Below, piece after piece: positions 2 through 54,227 of a stretch of DNA of 64,000 nt. The position numbers were made by a program, and so were the translations under genes. Source of the stretch: an uncultured Planctomycetales bacterium (lineage in GTDB: Bacteria; Planctomycetota; UBA1135). Where the stretch lies: NCBI GenBank assembly GCA_964342475.1, contig CAYFGE010000006.1, positions 92,626 through 156,625 of the forward strand, in the 5' to 3' direction. Each line of letters starts with the position of its first letter. The stretch's first letter is position 1. The notes below the pieces were generated by a model. The model worked only from the letters and a program-made list of their open reading frames with translations. It searched no databases and was not told the origin of the DNA.

Positions 2-1613
<1,612 letters not shown>

Positions 1614-1624
<11 letters not shown>

Positions 1625-2222: not shown

Positions 2223-3747
2223 CCGCGACCGGCGCTCGCACGAGGTCTCCACCCAGATCCACTACCGCCTGGTGGAGGAGCTGGCTGCGAGCCGTGCGCA
2301 GTACCAGGAGCTGGTCGAGTCGATCCCCGAGATCGTCCTCGAGCTGGACCGGGAGGGGCGGCTGAGCTTCCTCAACCCCGCCTGGCGCGCCAAGCTCGGC
2401 TACAGCCTCGAGGAGTCCCTCGGCAAGGAGCTGACCGGCTTCGTCCACCGCGAGGACCTCGGCAATTTCCACCTCGCGCGCTCCGAGGGGCGCGAGGAGA
2501 ACGCCGCGGCCTACCGCCTGCAGGACGTCTTCCGCCTGCGCACGGCGACGGGCGAGACGCGCTGGTTCGCCTGGGCCGGCGGCAACTCGAGCGCGACGAG
2601 CACCACCGGCCTGCTGATCGACGCCACCGACCAGGTGCGGGCGGACGAGCTGCAGCGCGTGCTGCACAAGGAGCTGCTGTCGCAGAACCTGGTGCTCGAG
2701 CGGCAGAGCAACCGCATCAAGAACCTCTTCGACCACCTGTCGGAGGGCGTCTTCCTGCTCGACAGCGGCTTCCGCATCATCCACGTCAACCTGGCTGCCA
2801 AGGCGCGCCTGGGCTTCCCCTCGGGGGCCGAGGACGGCCAGGACTTCTTCGCCCTGCTGGCCACAGCGGGCGTCGGCGACCTGCCCACGGACGTGCTCGA
2901 CGGCGAGTCCGGCGGCTTCGAGGCCGAGATCGTCGACCGCACCGACGAGCACCGCTTCCTGAGCTTCTCCTTCCGCCAGATCCTGGCCTCGGCGAAGGAG
3001 CGCCCCTACCTGCTCGTCGTGCTCCGCGACGTCACCGCCGAGCGCAAGGTGGCCGCCGAGAAGCAGCGCTTCCTCGACAACTTCTCGCACGAGCTGCGCA
3101 CGCCGCTGACCTCGATCTACGGCTTCACCCAGACCCTGCTCGACACCGAGGACATCCCGGCCGACCAACAGCGCCGCTTCCTGACCATCATCCAGCGGCA
3201 GTCGCAGCGGCTGCGCCGGCTGATCGACGGCGTGCTGCAGCTGAGCGAGACCAACGTGGAGCAGGGCGAGATCGTCACCGAGGCGGTCGAGCTGCAGCCC
3301 CTGCTCGAGCGGATGCGCGAGGAGTTCGCGCCGGTGGTGGCGGAGAAGGGGCAGCGGCTGCTGCTCGAGACCGGCGCCGGGACGCCGCGCGTCACCTGGA
3401 ACCGCAAGCACCTCGAGACGGCGGTCAGCAACCTGCTGTCCAACGCGATCAAGTACTCGCCGGAGGACGCGACCATCCTGCTGCGCGCCGTCGAGGACGA
3501 CGAGGAGCTGCGCATCGAGGTGCTCGACGAGGGCATCGGGGTCCCGCCCGGCGACCGCTGGAAGATCTTCCAGCGCTTCTTCCGCACCTCGATCTCGCGC
3601 GACACCGAGGGCGGCACCGGACTGGGCCTCGCCATCTCGCGCGAGACCATGCAGCTGCTCGGCGGCGACGTGCGCTACGCGCCGCGCGAGGGGCAGGGTT
3701 CCTGCTTCTCGGTCGTGGTGCCGCTCAGGACGGCTCCGCGGACCTGA
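2206..3747 (+). CDS. PAS-domain sensor histidine kinase, apparently cytoplasmic
   Basis: H-box FSHELRTPLTSIYGF; ATPase boxes LLSNAIKYSP, DEGIGVP, GGTGLGLAISRE. PAS-like segments lie upstream and no obvious TM helix is seen. The start overlaps the upstream stop by 17 nt. Confidence 0.9.
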   Translation: MSSMPDRDRRSHEVSTQIHYRLVEELAASRAQYQELVESIPEIVLELDREGRLSFLNPAWRAKLGYSLEESLGKELTGFVHREDLGNFHLARSEGREENAAAYRLQDVFRLRTATGETRWFAWAGGNSSATSTTGLLIDATDQVRADELQRVLHKELLSQNLVLERQSNRIKNLFDHLSEGVFLLDSGFRIIHVNLAAKARLGFPSGAEDGQDFFALLATAGVGDLPTDVLDGESGGFEAEIVDRTDEHRFLSFSFRQILASAKERPYLLVVLRDVTAERKVAAEKQRFLDNFSHELRTPLTSIYGFTQTLLDTEDIPADQQRRFLTIIQRQSQRLRRLIDGVLQLSETNVEQGEIVTEAVELQPLLERMREEFAPVVAEKGQRLLLETGAGTPRVTWNRKHLETAVSNLLSNAIKYSPEDATILLRAVEDDEELRIEVLDEGIGVPPGDRWKIFQRFFRTSISRDTEGGTGLGLAISRETMQLLGGDVRYAPREGQGSCFSVVVPLRTAPRT

Positions 3748-49845: not shown

Positions 49846-50619
49846 ATGCCCATCCCCCTCCAAGAAGGCTGGCTCTACGGCCCGGTGAACTCGCGCCGCT
49901 ACGGCCGCAGCCTGGGCGTGAACCCGCTGCCGGTCGACCGCAAGCTGTGCTCGCTCGACTGCCTGTACTGCCAGTACGGCTTCACCCGCGCCCAGGACGT
50001 CGCCGGGCGCGCCGAGGTGCCGGGGGTGGCCGAGCTGGCCGAGGCCTTCGAGCGCGAGTTCGCCCGCCTCGCGGCCGCCGGGGATCTGCCCGACCGGATC
50101 ACGGTCGCCGGCAACGGGGAGCCGACCCTCCACCCCGACTTCCTCGAGATGTCGCGCGCCCTGGTCGCCGCCCGCGACCGCCACTTCCCGGGCGCCACGA
50201 TCGGCATCCTGTGCAACTCGATGCACCTCAACCGCGAGGACGTCGTGACCGCCCTCAACGAGTGCTACGACGAGGCGGCGATGAAGCTCGAGTGGGGCTC
50301 GGCGGCCTGCTTCGCGGCGATGAACCAGGTCTCGGAGAAGGGTTACGAGCGGGTCCTGGCGGGGCTCGAGCGGGTCGATCGCTTCGTGGTCCAGGCGCTG
50401 TTCATGCGCTCGCCGCGGGCGGACAACGCCACTCCGGCCGAGATCGAGGGCTGGCTGGCCAACCTCGAGCGGCTGCGCGAGCGGATCCGCTGGGTCGAGC
50501 TCTACTCGCTCGACCGTCCGCCGGCGGAGGCCGCCGAAGCCGTCCGCCTGGGCGGCGAGGAGCTCGCCGCGATCGCCGAGCGGGTCCGCGGCCGCGGTTT
50601 CGAGGCCCGCGTGGCCTGA
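49846..50619 (+). CDS. radical SAM protein
   Basis: GPVNSRRYGRSLGVN...CSLDCLYCQYG (CxxxCxxC) and GNGEPTLHP. Confidence 0.75.
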   Translation: MPIPLQEGWLYGPVNSRRYGRSLGVNPLPVDRKLCSLDCLYCQYGFTRAQDVAGRAEVPGVAELAEAFEREFARLAAAGDLPDRITVAGNGEPTLHPDFLEMSRALVAARDRHFPGATIGILCNSMHLNREDVVTALNECYDEAAMKLEWGSAACFAAMNQVSEKGYERVLAGLERVDRFVVQALFMRSPRADNATPAEIEGWLANLERLRERIRWVELYSLDRPPAEAAEAVRLGGEELAAIAERVRGRGFEARVA

Positions 50620-50695
50620 GGGGCTGCCGGAACGGCGGTCGGACTGCCGTTCTGGCGGGGAAACCTCCGCGGAAGCGGCTTCCTGATAATGATCC

Positions 50696-50718
50696 AAGTC
50701 ATTCTTTTTGAATGACTT
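50696..50718 (+). terminator. AT-rich hairpin AAGTCATTC-ttttt-GAATGACTT followed by aggTTTTTc (terminator of the upstream operon, or a protein-binding palindrome)
   Basis: Perfect 9-bp arms with a T-run 3 nt downstream. It lies 17 nt upstream of the -24 element of the hsp20 promoter. Confidence 0.4.
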
Positions 50719-50734
50719 AGGTTTTTCTATGCGG

Positions 50735-50751
50735 TTGGCATGGGGCTTGCA
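50735..50751 (+). promoter_or_regulatory. sigma-54 (-24/-12) promoter for hsp20
   Basis: TTGGCATGGGGCTTGCA matches TGGCAC-N5-TTGCW with a GG-to-GC offset of 12. The predicted start site near 50762 is followed by AAAGGAGA and ATG 50791. Confidence 0.75.
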
Positions 50752-50790
50752 TCTTATCGGACGTCCCTGGACCCCGAAAGGAGAACATCC

Positions 50791-51276
50791 ATGAGCCCGA
50801 CCCTCTGCAAGACCCCTGCCCCGACCCCCGCGACCCGTCGCCGCCGCAACGGCCTCGATCTGTGGGACGGCTTCTTCGACAGCCTGTTCGAGAGCCCGCT
50901 CCTGCGCTGGCCGGTCGGCGTCTCCGGCGCCCCGTCCGCCGCCCTGAGCTTCGCTCCGCGCCTCGACCTGACCGAGGGCGAGAAGGGCTTCACCCTGACC
51001 GCCGAGATGCCCGGCCTGACGAAGGAGGACATCGAGCTCGAGCTGCGCGAGGACGCCCTCGTCCTGCGCGGCGAGAAGAAGCCCGAGCCGGAGGCCGACG
51101 AGGAGACCGTGCTCCACACCGAGCGCCGCTGGGGCCGCTTCGAGCGCAGCCTGCGCCTGCCGACCGACATCGACCCCGACGCCGTCGAGGCGAGCTTCCG
51201 CAACGGGGTCCTGGTCGTGAACCTGCCGAAGGCCTCGCCGGGGGGCGGGCCGCGGAAGATCCAGGTGAACGACTGA
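50791..51276 (+). CDS. small heat-shock protein (Hsp20/alpha-crystallin family)
   Basis: alpha-crystallin domain PRLDLTEGEKGFTLTAEMPGLTKEDIELELREDALVLRGEK...GRFERSLRLP...ASFRNGVLVVNLPK. Confidence 0.9.
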   Translation: MSPTLCKTPAPTPATRRRRNGLDLWDGFFDSLFESPLLRWPVGVSGAPSAALSFAPRLDLTEGEKGFTLTAEMPGLTKEDIELELREDALVLRGEKKPEPEADEETVLHTERRWGRFERSLRLPTDIDPDAVEASFRNGVLVVNLPKASPGGGPRKIQVND

Positions 51277-51306
51277 TCCAGGAAGAGAGAGAGAAGAGGA
51301 ATATCC

Positions 51307-51337
51307 GGGGGAGCCGATCGGGAGAGCCGGCTCCCCC
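51307..51337. terminator. hairpin between convergent hsp20 and thioesterase genes
   Basis: GGGGGAGCCG-N11-CGGCTCCCCC, 10-bp perfect arms. Confidence 0.5.
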
Positions 51338-51347
51338 ACCTCTCTGC

Positions 51348-51749
51348 TCAGGCGCCGTCCGCCGCCTCCTCGTCGCGGATCGGCACCGGGCGGCGGTGCT
51401 CGTCCACCGCCACGTAGGTCACGGTGGCCTCGGTGACCTGGACCTCCACGCTGGGGTCCTGCCGCCGCTGCGCCACGACGTCCACCGCCACGGTCACCGA
51501 GGTGCGCCCGACCTTGACCAGGCGGGTGTAGAAGCTGACCAGGTCGCCGACGAAGACCGGCTCGTGGAACACGATCTGGTCCATCGCCACGGTGACGTAG
51601 GCCCGCCGCGGGTTGAGGTCGTGGGCCTCCACCACCGCCGCGAGGTCGATGTGGCTGAGGATGATGCCGCCGAAGATCGTGCCGTTGGCGTTGGTGTCCT
51701 TCGGCATCAGGATCGTGCGGATGGCCGGCTCGCGACGCGGGGCGCTCAT
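51348..51749 (-). CDS. hotdog-fold acyl-CoA thioesterase (YciA-like)
   Basis: MPKDTNANGTIFGGIILSHIDLAA...VTVAMDQIVFHEPVFVGDLV, typical of the family. Confidence 0.85.
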   Translation of the reverse strand: MSAPRREPAIRTILMPKDTNANGTIFGGIILSHIDLAAVVEAHDLNPRRAYVTVAMDQIVFHEPVFVGDLVSFYTRLVKVGRTSVTVAVDVVAQRRQDPSVEVQVTEATVTYVAVDEHRRPVPIRDEEAADGA

Positions 51750-51755
51750 GGGGGC

Positions 51756-51761
51756 ATTCTG
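51756..51761 (-). promoter_or_regulatory. candidate -10-like box CAGAAT, 6 nt upstream of ATG 51749 (leaderless)
   Basis: The reverse complement reads CAGAATgcccccATG. Confidence 0.35.
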
Positions 51762-51774
51762 CCGCCGCGCCCGT

Positions 51775-51800
51775 TCCGCACACCACCGTGCGGATCCGCA
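51775..51800. promoter_or_regulatory. cluster of TCCGCA/TGCGGA half-sites including the 12-bp palindrome TGCGGATCCGCA; candidate enhancer-binding-protein site
   Basis: TCCGCAC-accacc-GTGCGGATCCGCA, centred ~40 nt upstream of the sigma-54 -24 element at 51834. Confidence 0.35.
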
Positions 51801-51831
51801 ACGGGGCCGGGGGCGGAGGTTCCCGGCCGGC

Positions 51832-51848
51832 TTGGCACGGCAGTTGCC
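51832..51848 (+). promoter_or_regulatory. sigma-54 (-24/-12) promoter with no downstream ORF
   Basis: TTGGCACGGCAGTTGCC is a full match to TGGCACG-N4-TTGC, with GG at 51834-5 and GC at 51846-7. Confidence 0.7.
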
Positions 51849-51858
51849 CCTCTTGCGG

Positions 51859-51966
51859 TGTTCCGAAACTCGAACGGACCCGGGCCGCCGTGGGGGCTAC
51901 CCGGCCCGCTTCGAACCTTGAAGAACAGGGGGTGGCCCGACCGCCAGCGGCGGTCGGGCCTTTTTT
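51859..51966 (+). ncRNA. candidate ~108-nt sigma-54-dependent small RNA
   Basis: Bounded by the sigma-54 promoter (predicted +1 near 51859) and a strong intrinsic terminator. No start codon with RBS or credible ORF lies in between. Internal hairpins: TCCG..CGGA, GGGCCG..CGGCCC, CTTC..GAAG. Confidence 0.5.
51934..51966 (+). terminator. Rho-independent terminator (plus-strand orientation)
   Basis: GGCCCGACCGCC-agc-GGCGGTCGGGCC (12-bp perfect stem) followed by TTTTTT. The U-tract exists only on the plus strand. Confidence 0.85.
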
Positions 51967-52628
51967 CATCCCGCCCAGCCGTCGCCGGCCAGCCAGCCCT
52001 CCAGGCTGCGGGCGGTGAAGGCGCGCACCTCGTGGAGCTGCCCGGGGAAGAAGTGCCCGGCGCCTGGCAGCAGCTGGACGCGGCCGCCGTGCTCCTCAGC
52101 CGGTCCCATGCGGTGCAGGTCGACGAACTCGTCGTGGTCGCCGGCCAGGAAGGCCATCCGCTCGGGCCAGCGCTCGAGCTCGGGCCAGGAGTAGAAGCGG
52201 GTCGGCCAGGCCACCGCCAGGTACCCGGCGGCCCGGCGGCCGAGGCGCGCGGCGAGCTGCAGGCCGACGCGCGAGCCGAAGCTGAAGCCCCAGACGAAGA
52301 CCGGCAGGCCGCCGCCCTGCTCCTCGAGCCAGTCGAAGGCCGCCTCGGCGTCGTCGATCTCGCCGACGCCCTGGTCGTAGCTACCGTCGGAGCGGCCGAC
52401 CCCGCGGAAGTCGATGCGCAGCGCGGCGCAGCCGACCTCGAGCGAGCCGAGCGCGCCGTGGCGCACGACGTTGTTCTGCCGCGTCCCGCCGTGCTGCGGG
52501 TGCGGGTGCAGGTGGAGCACCAGCCCGCGCGCGTTGCCCTCCGGGCGCTCGAAGGTGGCGTCGAGCCGGCCGGCGGGGCCGTCGAGGAAGGGCCGCTCGG
52601 GCGGCGGGGTGTCGAGGTCGCGGGGCAT
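51966..52628 (-). CDS. alpha/beta-fold hydrolase
   Basis: Last 220 aa of the track ORF: HLHPHPQHGG, nucleophile-elbow-like VWGFSFGS, DHDEF, GAGHFF. Start at ATG 52628 (MPRDLD). Confidence 0.75.
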   Translation of the reverse strand: MPRDLDTPPPERPFLDGPAGRLDATFERPEGNARGLVLHLHPHPQHGGTRQNNVVRHGALGSLEVGCAALRIDFRGVGRSDGSYDQGVGEIDDAEAAFDWLEEQGGGLPVFVWGFSFGSRVGLQLAARLGRRAAGYLAVAWPTRFYSWPELERWPERMAFLAGDHDEFVDLHRMGPAEEHGGRVQLLPGAGHFFPGQLHEVRAFTARSLEGWLAGDGWAG

Positions 52629-52682
52629 GGCGGGGCGGCCGGGCTGGAGCGGCGGCCCGGGCGCCGCTAGTTTCGCCTCGCG

Positions 52683-53162
52683 GTGCCCCTCCTCGCCACG
52701 TTGCTGACCGACCTCCCGCTGCCCGACGAGGCGGCCTTCCGCGGCGTCCTGCTCGACTGCAGCCGCACGGCGCTGGCCGGCTCGATCCTGCAGGACGGCA
52801 TGAGCGCCTCGCACGCCTACGGCGAGGCCGAGACCGACCGCGAGCTGCGCGAGGTCCGCGTGGTCTGCCGCAAGGCCAACACGGCCCACCGCGCGGCGCT
52901 GGTCGAGCTCGAGAAGATCGGCTTCCGCCCCGCCACCGCGCTCGAGTTCCACACCGCCGGCGACCACGAGTCCAACGAGGACGCCTGGGCCCTGTGCGAG
53001 GTCTACGCCGAGGAGCTCAAGGGCTGGGTGGTCACCGCCTACATCGACTACGAGACCGCCGCCGAGCGCGCCGGGAGCGAGGAGGGCCTGATCCACGCCC
53101 CGGTCGGCGGCCGCCACAAGGGCGTGCTCATCGCGGCCAGCACCCTGCGCCTGCTGGCCTGA
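52683..53162 (+). CDS. hypothetical protein
   Basis: 159 aa with near-uniform G/C at third positions and a balanced composition, unlike the antisense frame. TAGTTT box lies 9 nt upstream of GTG 52683. Confidence 0.55.
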   Translation: MPLLATLLTDLPLPDEAAFRGVLLDCSRTALAGSILQDGMSASHAYGEAETDRELREVRVVCRKANTAHRAALVELEKIGFRPATALEFHTAGDHESNEDAWALCEVYAEELKGWVVTAYIDYETAAERAGSEEGLIHAPVGGRHKGVLIAASTLRLLA

Positions 53163-53165
53163 GGC

Positions 53166-54227
53166 TCAGCCCGGGAAGGGGCCGCTGAACGCAGCGATGT
53201 CGGGCCACAGCGGCGCCTCGACCACCAGCTGCCTTCCGGTCATCGGGTGCTCGACCTCGAGCTTCCAGGCGTGCAGGGCCTGGCGCTCGAGCACCAGCAG
53301 CGCGCGGTCGGTGTCGGTCAGCTCGTCCTGCACCGCGCGGATGAAGACCTCCTCGCCGCCCTGGTAGAGCTTGTCGCCGAGGATCGGGTGGCCGATCGCG
53401 GCGAGGTGGACCCGCAGCTGGTGCTGGCGGCCCGTCTTCGGCCGCAGCTCGACCAGGGTGCGCCCGGGCAGGCGCCGCGCCACGCGCCACTCGGTCAGCG
53501 AGGGCTGGCCGCCGTCGTCGTGGCGCACGGTCATCTTCAGCCGCACCGTCGAGGTCAGCGCGCGGCCGAGCGGCAGCTCGATCACGCCGGCCTCCTCGGC
53601 CATCTCGCCCTCGACCAGCGCGAGGTAGGTCTTCTGCACCGTGCGGGCCTCGAACTGCCGCCCGATGCGGGTGCGCGAGAGCTGGTCCTTGGCCGCCAGC
53701 ACGATGCCGCTGGTCTCGCGGTCGAGGCGGTGGCACAGCGTCGGCACCTCCTCGGTCGCGCCGTGCACGGCGCGGTGCCGCTCGTGGATCAGGTGGATCA
53801 ACGAGCCGGTCAGGTGGCCCTTCGAGGGGTGGACGCTGATGCCCGGCGGCTTGTTCACCGCCACCACCGAGGCGTCCTCGAAGACCACCTCGAGGCCCGC
53901 GGAGGCCACCACCGGCACCGGCGTGTCGTCCTGCGGCTGCGGCGCCGGCGTGCGCAGCACGACCTCCTGGCCCCAGCGCAGCTTCAGCCCGTGGCGCAGG
54001 CTGCCGACCGGCGCCTGCTGCGGGTCCTTGCCGGGCAGGACCTCGACCCAGCCCTGCTGGATGAAGCGGCGCACGCCCTCGCGCGAGTGCCAGGACACGC
54101 GCGCGGCCAGGAAGCTGTCGAGCCGCTGGCCGTGGTCCGGCTCGCCGACGTCGAAGCGCTGCTCGACGTGGTCGAGGCTCAGGTCGCGCTGGCCGCGACG
54201 CTTCTTGCGGCTGGGTCGGCGGGGCAT
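53166..54227 (-). CDS. RluA-family pseudouridine synthase (RluD/RluC-like) with N-terminal S4 domain
   Basis: HRLDRETSGIVLAAKD catalytic motif, KTYLALVEG, and S4-like RLDSFLAARV. Confidence 0.9.
   Translation of the reverse strand: MPRRPSRKKRRGQRDLSLDHVEQRFDVGEPDHGQRLDSFLAARVSWHSREGVRRFIQQGWVEVLPGKDPQQAPVGSLRHGLKLRWGQEVVLRTPAPQPQDDTPVPVVASAGLEVVFEDASVVAVNKPPGISVHPSKGHLTGSLIHLIHERHRAVHGATEEVPTLCHRLDRETSGIVLAAKDQLSRTRIGRQFEARTVQKTYLALVEGEMAEEAGVIELPLGRALTSTVRLKMTVRHDDGGQPSLTEWRVARRLPGRTLVELRPKTGRQHQLRVHLAAIGHPILGDKLYQGGEEVFIRAVQDELTDTDRALLVLERQALHAWKLEVEHPMTGRQLVVEAPLWPDIAAFSGPFPG

Follow-up and report, generated by a model that had tools for sequence, protein, structure and literature searches.

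A candidate sigma-54-dependent small RNA gene in an uncultured lineage of Planctomycetota

Regulatory RNAs that depend on sigma-54 and on a dedicated activator are known from several bacteria. The Qrr1-5 RNAs of Vibrio (sigma-54 and LuxO) derive from free-standing sRNA genes of about 100 nt with a sigma-54 promoter and, upstream, a site for an NtrC-family activator made up of TTGC-type inverted half-sites (TTGCA-N3-TGCAA in the case of LuxO); the RNAs form several stem-loops, keep one segment single stranded and conserved, and end in an intrinsic terminator. In enterobacteria, the activator-dependent sRNA genes glmY and glmZ (sigma-54 and GlrR) have upstream activator sites, and GlmY works by protein mimicry on RapZ. 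In Pseudomonas, CrcZ and CrcY (sigma-54 and CbrB) are sigma-54-dependent noncoding RNAs with repeated short motifs, CrcZ being about 400 nt long with several A-rich motifs. We found no description of a sigma-54-dependent sRNA from Planctomycetota in the literature, and we know of no regulatory RNA of this phylum that has been characterized experimentally. Finally, Pxr of Myxococcus xanthus, a small RNA with several stem-loops from a high-GC genome, has a predicted sigma-54 promoter, an upstream enhancer-binding region, and an NtrC-like regulator (PMC5684412), a source that bears out the dependence on an NtrC-like activator cited in the original prediction for the locus considered here.

From the comparison of related loci, we consider it likely that the region 51859..51966, from an uncultured Planctomycetota lineage, is a free-standing gene for a noncoding RNA of about 108 nt, located on the plus strand and driven by sigma-54 and an activator; transcription, dependence on sigma-54 and the activator, and the mode of action are what we infer for this candidate. 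As predicted here, the unit resembles the qrr genes in its size and free-standing position and in its promoter, candidate activator site with inverted half-sites, stem-loops, terminator, and conserved single-stranded segment. However, different from Qrr, the RNA has no match to any Rfam family and belongs to a different phylum, its conserved segment is G rich and adjoins the terminator, it occurs in one copy in 64 kb, and the activator gene is not adjacent. The predicted promoter and activator features, the small size with several stem-loops, and the high-GC genome likewise recall Pxr, but pxr immediately follows pxrR, the gene of its regulator, whereas here there is no activator gene nearby, and no Rfam family reached the threshold for this RNA. 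With GlmY and GlmZ the proposed gene would have in common the dependence on sigma-54 and an activator and the upstream activator site; different from them, it shows no homology in the Rfam search and no overlapping plus-strand sigma-70 promoter, and nothing in the RNA suggests a protein mimicry of the GlmY kind. The likeness to CrcZ would lie in the sigma-54 dependence and the repeated short motifs, although the RNA is about 108 nt long and carries one or two G-runs. The RNA is best read as putatively founding a new family within the regulatory type to which Qrr, GlmY, and Pxr belong.

The window, that is, the whole 64-kb stretch of DNA analyzed, has a G+C content of about 73%. The candidate unit occupies a 216-bp intergenic gap and is the only plus-strand feature there. 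The hydrolase gene had been described as convergent with the RNA, and this holds; the picture has to be corrected in that the two neighbors share the minus strand, with the thioesterase gene divergent from the RNA. The features of the locus are as follows.

51348-51749, minus strand: 4HBT thioesterase gene (133 aa), divergent from the RNA unit
51756..51761, minus strand: -10-like hexamer CAGAAT (ATTCTG on the plus strand), 6 nt ahead of the start codon ATG of the thioesterase gene (A at 51749)
51777..51781: upstream half-site CGCAC, 5 to 7 nt from the main inverted repeat
51788..51802: inverted repeat GTGCG-GATC-CGCAAC, candidate enhancer-binding-protein site, centered at about -64.5
51833..51847, plus strand: putative sigma-54 promoter TGGCAC-GGCAG-TTGC (TGGCACGGCAGTTGC; -24 GG, -12 GC), exact consensus match
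51859..51966, plus strand: predicted transcript of about 108 nt, with +1 within 51856-51860
51860..51863, plus strand: 5' arm GUUC of the predicted closing helix P1, pairing with GAAC at 51923-51926
51870..51914, plus strand: predicted long hairpin P2, with the apical GCC-GUGGG-GGC at 51887-51897 (minimum-energy fold)
51923..51935, plus strand: conserved motif GAACAGGGGGUGG, whose G5 run (51928-51932) is predicted to be single stranded, directly 5' of the terminator
51934..51966, plus strand: predicted intrinsic terminator, with a 12-bp stem, an AGC loop, and T6 (terminator scan)
51966-52628, minus strand: alpha/beta-hydrolase gene (220 aa), convergent with the RNA unit

The start of the thioesterase gene is 84 nt from the -24 element, on its upstream side. 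All nine versions of the locus described below have a hexamer of the form [C/G]A[G/C/T]AAT at 6 to 8 nt from the start codon of the thioesterase gene, which suggests an independent, leaderless thioesterase transcript; CAGAAT would probably be the promoter of this mRNA, reading away from the RNA gene. This predicted promoter region overlaps the activator half-sites. As for the wider surroundings, a 159-aa protein without a Pfam match is encoded at 52683-53162 (plus strand), and in the related loci a Pfam-less gene (158 to 161 aa) is called in the equivalent divergent position beside the hydrolase gene. The segment 49000-49750 has a G+C of 0.80 to 0.82, well over the window mean of about 0.73, and contains several overlapping long open reading frames (ORFs).

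Relatives were gathered through a metagenome scan with the less conserved hydrolase, a protein search, and look-ups of selected homologues. This resulted in nine distinct versions of the intergenic unit, including that of the window, on related Planctomycetota metagenome contigs, and the proteins of the relatives are named in the sources as Planctomycetota MAG proteins. The hydrolase is 81% identical to that of the window in version L097 (= L085), 79% in L100, 71% in L107, 69% in L109 (= L110, GCA_003696625.1), 68% in L115, 63% in L114, 62.5% in L120, and 62% in L092, while four near-identical strains (L116 to L119) have a hydrolase 99% identical to it. The exact-protein look-up of the thioesterase returned only DNA identical to the window, and a thioesterase scan of representative genomes gave relatives of at most 68% identity (Planctomycetota, Acidobacteriota), none with a -24/-12 element upstream among the matches listed. 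In eight other lineages the hydrolase and thioesterase genes overlap or nearly abut, without the RNA unit. Since these unit-less loci form one nested clade in a neighbor-joining hydrolase tree (no support values), an ancestral unit with a single loss is more parsimonious; the unit is probably ancestral and was probably lost once, and a recent insertion is disfavored by the same tree. In L114 the hydrolase gene is separated by another gene from the RNA unit, which still adjoins the 5' end of the thioesterase gene; the inserted segment (2554-3074 of that locus) comprises a Polbeta-type nucleotidyltransferase gene and a 40-aa ORF. The RNA bodies of L092, L114, L115, and L120 differ, the common elements being the promoter, the G-rich stretch ACAGGGGG, and the terminator, and it counts against the proposed reading that the RNA body is not alignable across all nine versions. 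A second copy of the RNA was found with covariance model R1 neither in the window nor in 30 loci.

The original prediction had reported a full match to the -24/-12 consensus on the plus strand, which is confirmed in the context TTGGCACGGCAGTTGCC (51832-51848). In the window scan, TGGCAC-N5-TTGC has a single exact match in the 64 kb on both strands, where 0.06 are expected by chance from dinucleotide shuffles, with at least one match in 6 of the 100 shuffles. Furthermore, the same pattern is exact in nine of nine diverged versions, while the 5-nt spacer (GGCAG, GCCCT, ACCCT, GCCGC, GCCCT, GCTCC, GCGTC, GGCGC, and GGTGC) and the flanks vary. In its sequence, the element has the form of a sigma-54 (RpoN)-dependent promoter, which we take it to be.

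The upstream region presents the 12-bp palindrome TGCGGATCCGCA (51789-51800) and the extra TCCGCA (51775-51780) as they had been claimed, and a role of the palindrome as a site for an enhancer-binding protein gains support from its arrangement. In eight of the nine versions, a spacer of exactly 30 nt separates GTGCG-N4-CGCAAC from the TGGCAC downstream of it, while the sequence of these 30 nt varies, and in an ungapped, promoter-anchored alignment of seven versions the promoter and the inverted repeat are the only two conserved blocks in the 95 nt upstream; L115, recovered later, has the same 30-nt spacing. The distance from the inverted repeat to the thioesterase ATG, on the other hand, ranges from 33 to more than 50 nt across the versions, so that the repeat appears tied to the sigma-54 promoter and not to the thioesterase gene. 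A fixed spacing is as expected of an enhancer-binding-protein site. The composite pattern GTGCG-N4-CGCA-N32-TGGCAC-N5-TTGC, where N32 stands for the AC completing CGCAAC plus the 30-nt spacer, occurs in 13 loci representing five versions and in L115 too, with L100 and L092 each one base short of it. The additional CGCAC half-site is present in eight versions with a variable spacing (N5 to N7), and it is invariant among the close strains. The ninth version, L120, has a degenerate repeat (GGGCG-AAAT-CGCACA) about 50 nt upstream of TGGCAC, about two helical turns further away; in this lower-GC relative a second palindrome, GTTGCG-TTC-TGCAAC, is found further upstream (2780-2860, minus strand of that locus). 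The TGCG/CGCA half-sites presumably resemble NtrC- and LuxO-type sites.

Some observations count against the assignment of this site. Taken by itself, the repeat motif is no rarer in the window than expected by chance, and a search of the window for further activator sites matched only the site itself, with near-matches at chance level. Moreover, a position of about -64 is nearer to the promoter than that of most characterized enhancer sites, and the window has a single activator gene, at a distance of about 50 kb from the RNA unit. This gene (2-1624, plus strand), which is truncated by the edge of the window, codes for a sigma-54 activator of the GAFTGA type with the domain order REC - Sigma54_activat (GAFTGA) - HTH_8 - C-terminal Hpt; the fusion of an Hpt domain to an NtrC-type activator is uncommon. 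The rpoN gene does not lie within the window. Taken with the -24/-12 promoter of the hsp20 gene, the activator gene indicates that the organism uses the sigma-54 machinery. The hsp20 gene (50791-51276, plus strand) has its own sigma-54-type promoter, TGGCATGGGGCTTGC (50736-50750), which is kept in L097 and L109 and is followed by the conserved TTATCGGAC. Unusually for a genome of 73% GC, the window has a perfect AT-rich palindrome, AAGTCATTC-TTTTT-GAATGACTT (50696-50718), 17 nt upstream of this promoter; it could be the terminator of the radical-SAM gene or an activator or IHF-type site. An activator site shared with hsp20 was considered and rejected: GTGCG-N4-CGCA is absent upstream of the hsp20 promoter, and thus there is no evidence for a regulon common to hsp20 and the RNA.

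With +1 set 12 nt after the C of the -12 element, the predicted RNA of 108 nt, starting at 51859, has a folding energy of -58.5 kcal/mol (z = -3.1 versus shuffles). Three small internal hairpins had been envisaged; instead, the conserved fold combines a closing helix with a single long hairpin and the terminator. In particular, five versions align over their full length, and their consensus comprises the GUUC/GAAC closing helix, the long hairpin with the GCC-GUGGG-GGC apex, the single-stranded AGGGGGU, and the terminator. The covariance model built from these five sequences detects two left-out versions (L114 at 28 bits, L092 at 24 bits), and its match in the window, one of the five model members, is at 51858-51967 with 97.8 bits. 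In an alignment of seven sequences, 90.5% of the cells are paired, and 13 of the 33 pairs show compensatory (double) changes, values that 0 of 500 shuffles reached and that compare with 30 to 51% paired cells in slid-partner controls; only seven sequences contribute, and the alignment was fitted to the covariance model. The covariation that was to be looked for in the homologous intergenic region of relatives is thus present in this sample. The two helices of P2 have seven pairs with compensatory changes, and its loop GCCGUGGGGGC is kept in five versions, while six pairs of the terminator stem covary in this way. P1 is paired in 92.9% of the cells with zero compensatory changes; L115 and L120 lack this helix, and its presence in L092 is doubtful. 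G·U cells amount to 21 and A·C cells to 2, and hence the helices fit the plus strand better. On this small sample of seven sequences, the region appears to have what distinguishes an sRNA gene, a conserved and covarying fold on the transcribed strand.

The 3' part of the unit agrees with the prediction of a perfect 12-bp GC stem followed by TTTTTT and working in the plus orientation only: the arms GGCCCGACCGCC (51934-51945) and GGCGGTCGGGCC (51949-51960) pair perfectly, T6 follows at 51961-51966, and on the minus strand ACCCCCTG comes after the stem, so that the T-run would serve plus-strand transcripts only. The U-tract does meet the stop codon of the hydrolase gene, since its last T, at 51966, also opens the TCA triplet that reads as the TGA stop on the minus strand. 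The T-run has at least five T in seven of the nine versions and is weak in L107 and L109. A scan of 3 kb (50500-53500) gave two terminator-like sites, the other one being the AT-rich palindrome at 50696-50718. A stem-loop followed by a U-run in this form is that of a putative intrinsic (Rho-independent) terminator. Directly 5' of it, ACAGGGGG is found in eight of the nine versions, while L107 has UUCGGGGG.

The comparison of the window with the strains L116 to L119 offers a view at a shorter distance. Of the 109 sites between the thioesterase ATG and 51858, 12 are variable; the half-sites, TGGCAC, and TTGC are free of them, and 51855 is the last. The 86 sites of the RNA body (51859-51944), in contrast, show no variation (Fisher's exact test, p = 0.0013), which reappears only in the terminator loop (51945) and where the T-run ends. 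The invariant stretch is thus bounded at the transcription start that the -12 element predicts (51859), and these data support purifying selection among the strains on the region from the predicted +1 to the T-run.

The absence of a credible ORF between promoter and terminator had been part of the original prediction, and it is upheld: no ORF is closed within the RNA, each candidate start running on antisense into the hydrolase gene, and a comparison of eight versions revealed no ORF that keeps its position, frame, or length. The RNA had not been recognized as a known family in that prediction, and the Rfam searches agree with this. No Rfam family reached the gathering score in the window or in eight loci representing seven of the eight homologous versions (all but L120), and with a limit of E = 10 the best subthreshold match in the window had an E of 0.3, the matches being to unrelated families and mostly on the terminator hairpin. 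A tRNA and tmRNA scan found neither. Overall, the comparative evidence supports the interpretation as a putative regulatory RNA of about 108 nt under enhancer-binding-protein control.

A role in cis is the main rival to an RNA acting in trans; it fits the location of the unit and leaves the conserved sequence and structure unexplained. The unit would be a cassette without targets in trans, in which transcription, or perfect complementarity to an mRNA reading through from the hydrolase to the thioesterase gene, controls the thioesterase gene, and which, along with the hairpin, insulates one gene from the other. The unit does lie between co-oriented minus-strand genes that, in the unit-less relatives, overlap and are apparently cotranscribed, and in the minus direction the hairpin has no U-run, so that read-through would be possible; the half-sites overlap the expected promoter region of the thioesterase gene, which the unit of L114 adjoins even though another gene separates it from the hydrolase gene. 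However, an antisense role requires neither a conserved sequence nor a conserved structure, whereas the helices covary with a G·U bias favoring the plus strand, ACAGGGGG is kept in eight of the nine versions, and the strains show no variation in the RNA body; moreover, the thioesterase gene appears to own a -10-like element at a fixed distance from its ATG. We regard such a cassette as rather unlikely.

We consider somewhat less likely still an RNA that titrates a protein, as CrcZ and RsmZ do, or that mimics a Shine-Dalgarno (SD) sequence, its G-runs (the GUGGGGG loop and ACAGGGGGU) sequestering an RNA-binding protein or the anti-SD of the 16S rRNA instead of pairing with mRNAs. A second G-run is readable in most versions, and by our own reasoning GGGGGUG could pair with CACCUCC with one G·U pair. 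Nevertheless, the bases after G5 vary (UGG, UUGG, AGG, AUG, GUAG), the version of the window has no GGA motif, and two motifs are few for a sponge, for which no candidate protein was identified. The more specific proposal that the conserved G5 (GGGGGUG in the window, GGGGGAGG in L092) is an SD mimic or a protein site, titrating the 16S anti-SD or a global RNA-binding protein under sigma-54 and activator control, with the same activator sites also gating the divergent leaderless thioesterase promoter, seems to us comparably doubtful. An mRNA for a small protein, or a chance pair of promoter-like and terminator-like sequences without function, is very improbable. GTG and TTG codons do occur in the RNA, but the position, frame, and length of the ORF are not conserved in eight versions and the indels are not multiples of three, and the small-ORF reading was rejected. 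A single -24/-12 match arises in 6 of 100 shuffles, but chance is excluded by the exact conservation of the promoter in nine loci and by the lack of variable sites in the 86-nt RNA body.

For the preferred reading, a regulatory RNA acting in trans, it is possible to hypothesize the following sequence of events. The sigma-54 RNA polymerase would bind TGGCAC-N5-TTGC (51833-47), and an NtrC-type enhancer-binding protein seated on GTGCG-N4-CGCAAC (about -64.5) and on the third half-site would open the complex upon a signal. Transcription would begin near 51859 and end at the hairpin and U-run (51934-66), and the RNA would fold into the 5'/3' closing helix, the long hairpin with its G-rich apical loop, the single-stranded ACAGGGGG, and the terminator. 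It may then act in trans through the near-invariant G-rich stretch beside the terminator, the most evident candidate for contacts with a target RNA or a protein; base pairing to C-rich segments of mRNAs would be the more likely mode and protein titration the alternative. Among the neighboring genes, an inspection by eye for pairing with the G-run found no conserved complementary target: the CCCCC before the thioesterase ATG is present only in the window and L092, and the C-runs of the hsp20 leader are not conserved, and both were discarded as conserved targets.

The locus presents as a compact unit that combines a putative activator site set at a constant distance, a -24/-12 element free of variation, a structured RNA of about 108 nt, and a candidate functional motif, and this unit is kept while the flanking hydrolase diverges to about 60% identity. 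We suggest that it could seed a new Rfam family, that it could serve as a reporter to identify the cognate enhancer-binding protein and its signal, and that it could open up a sigma-54 regulon in these uncultured bacteria.
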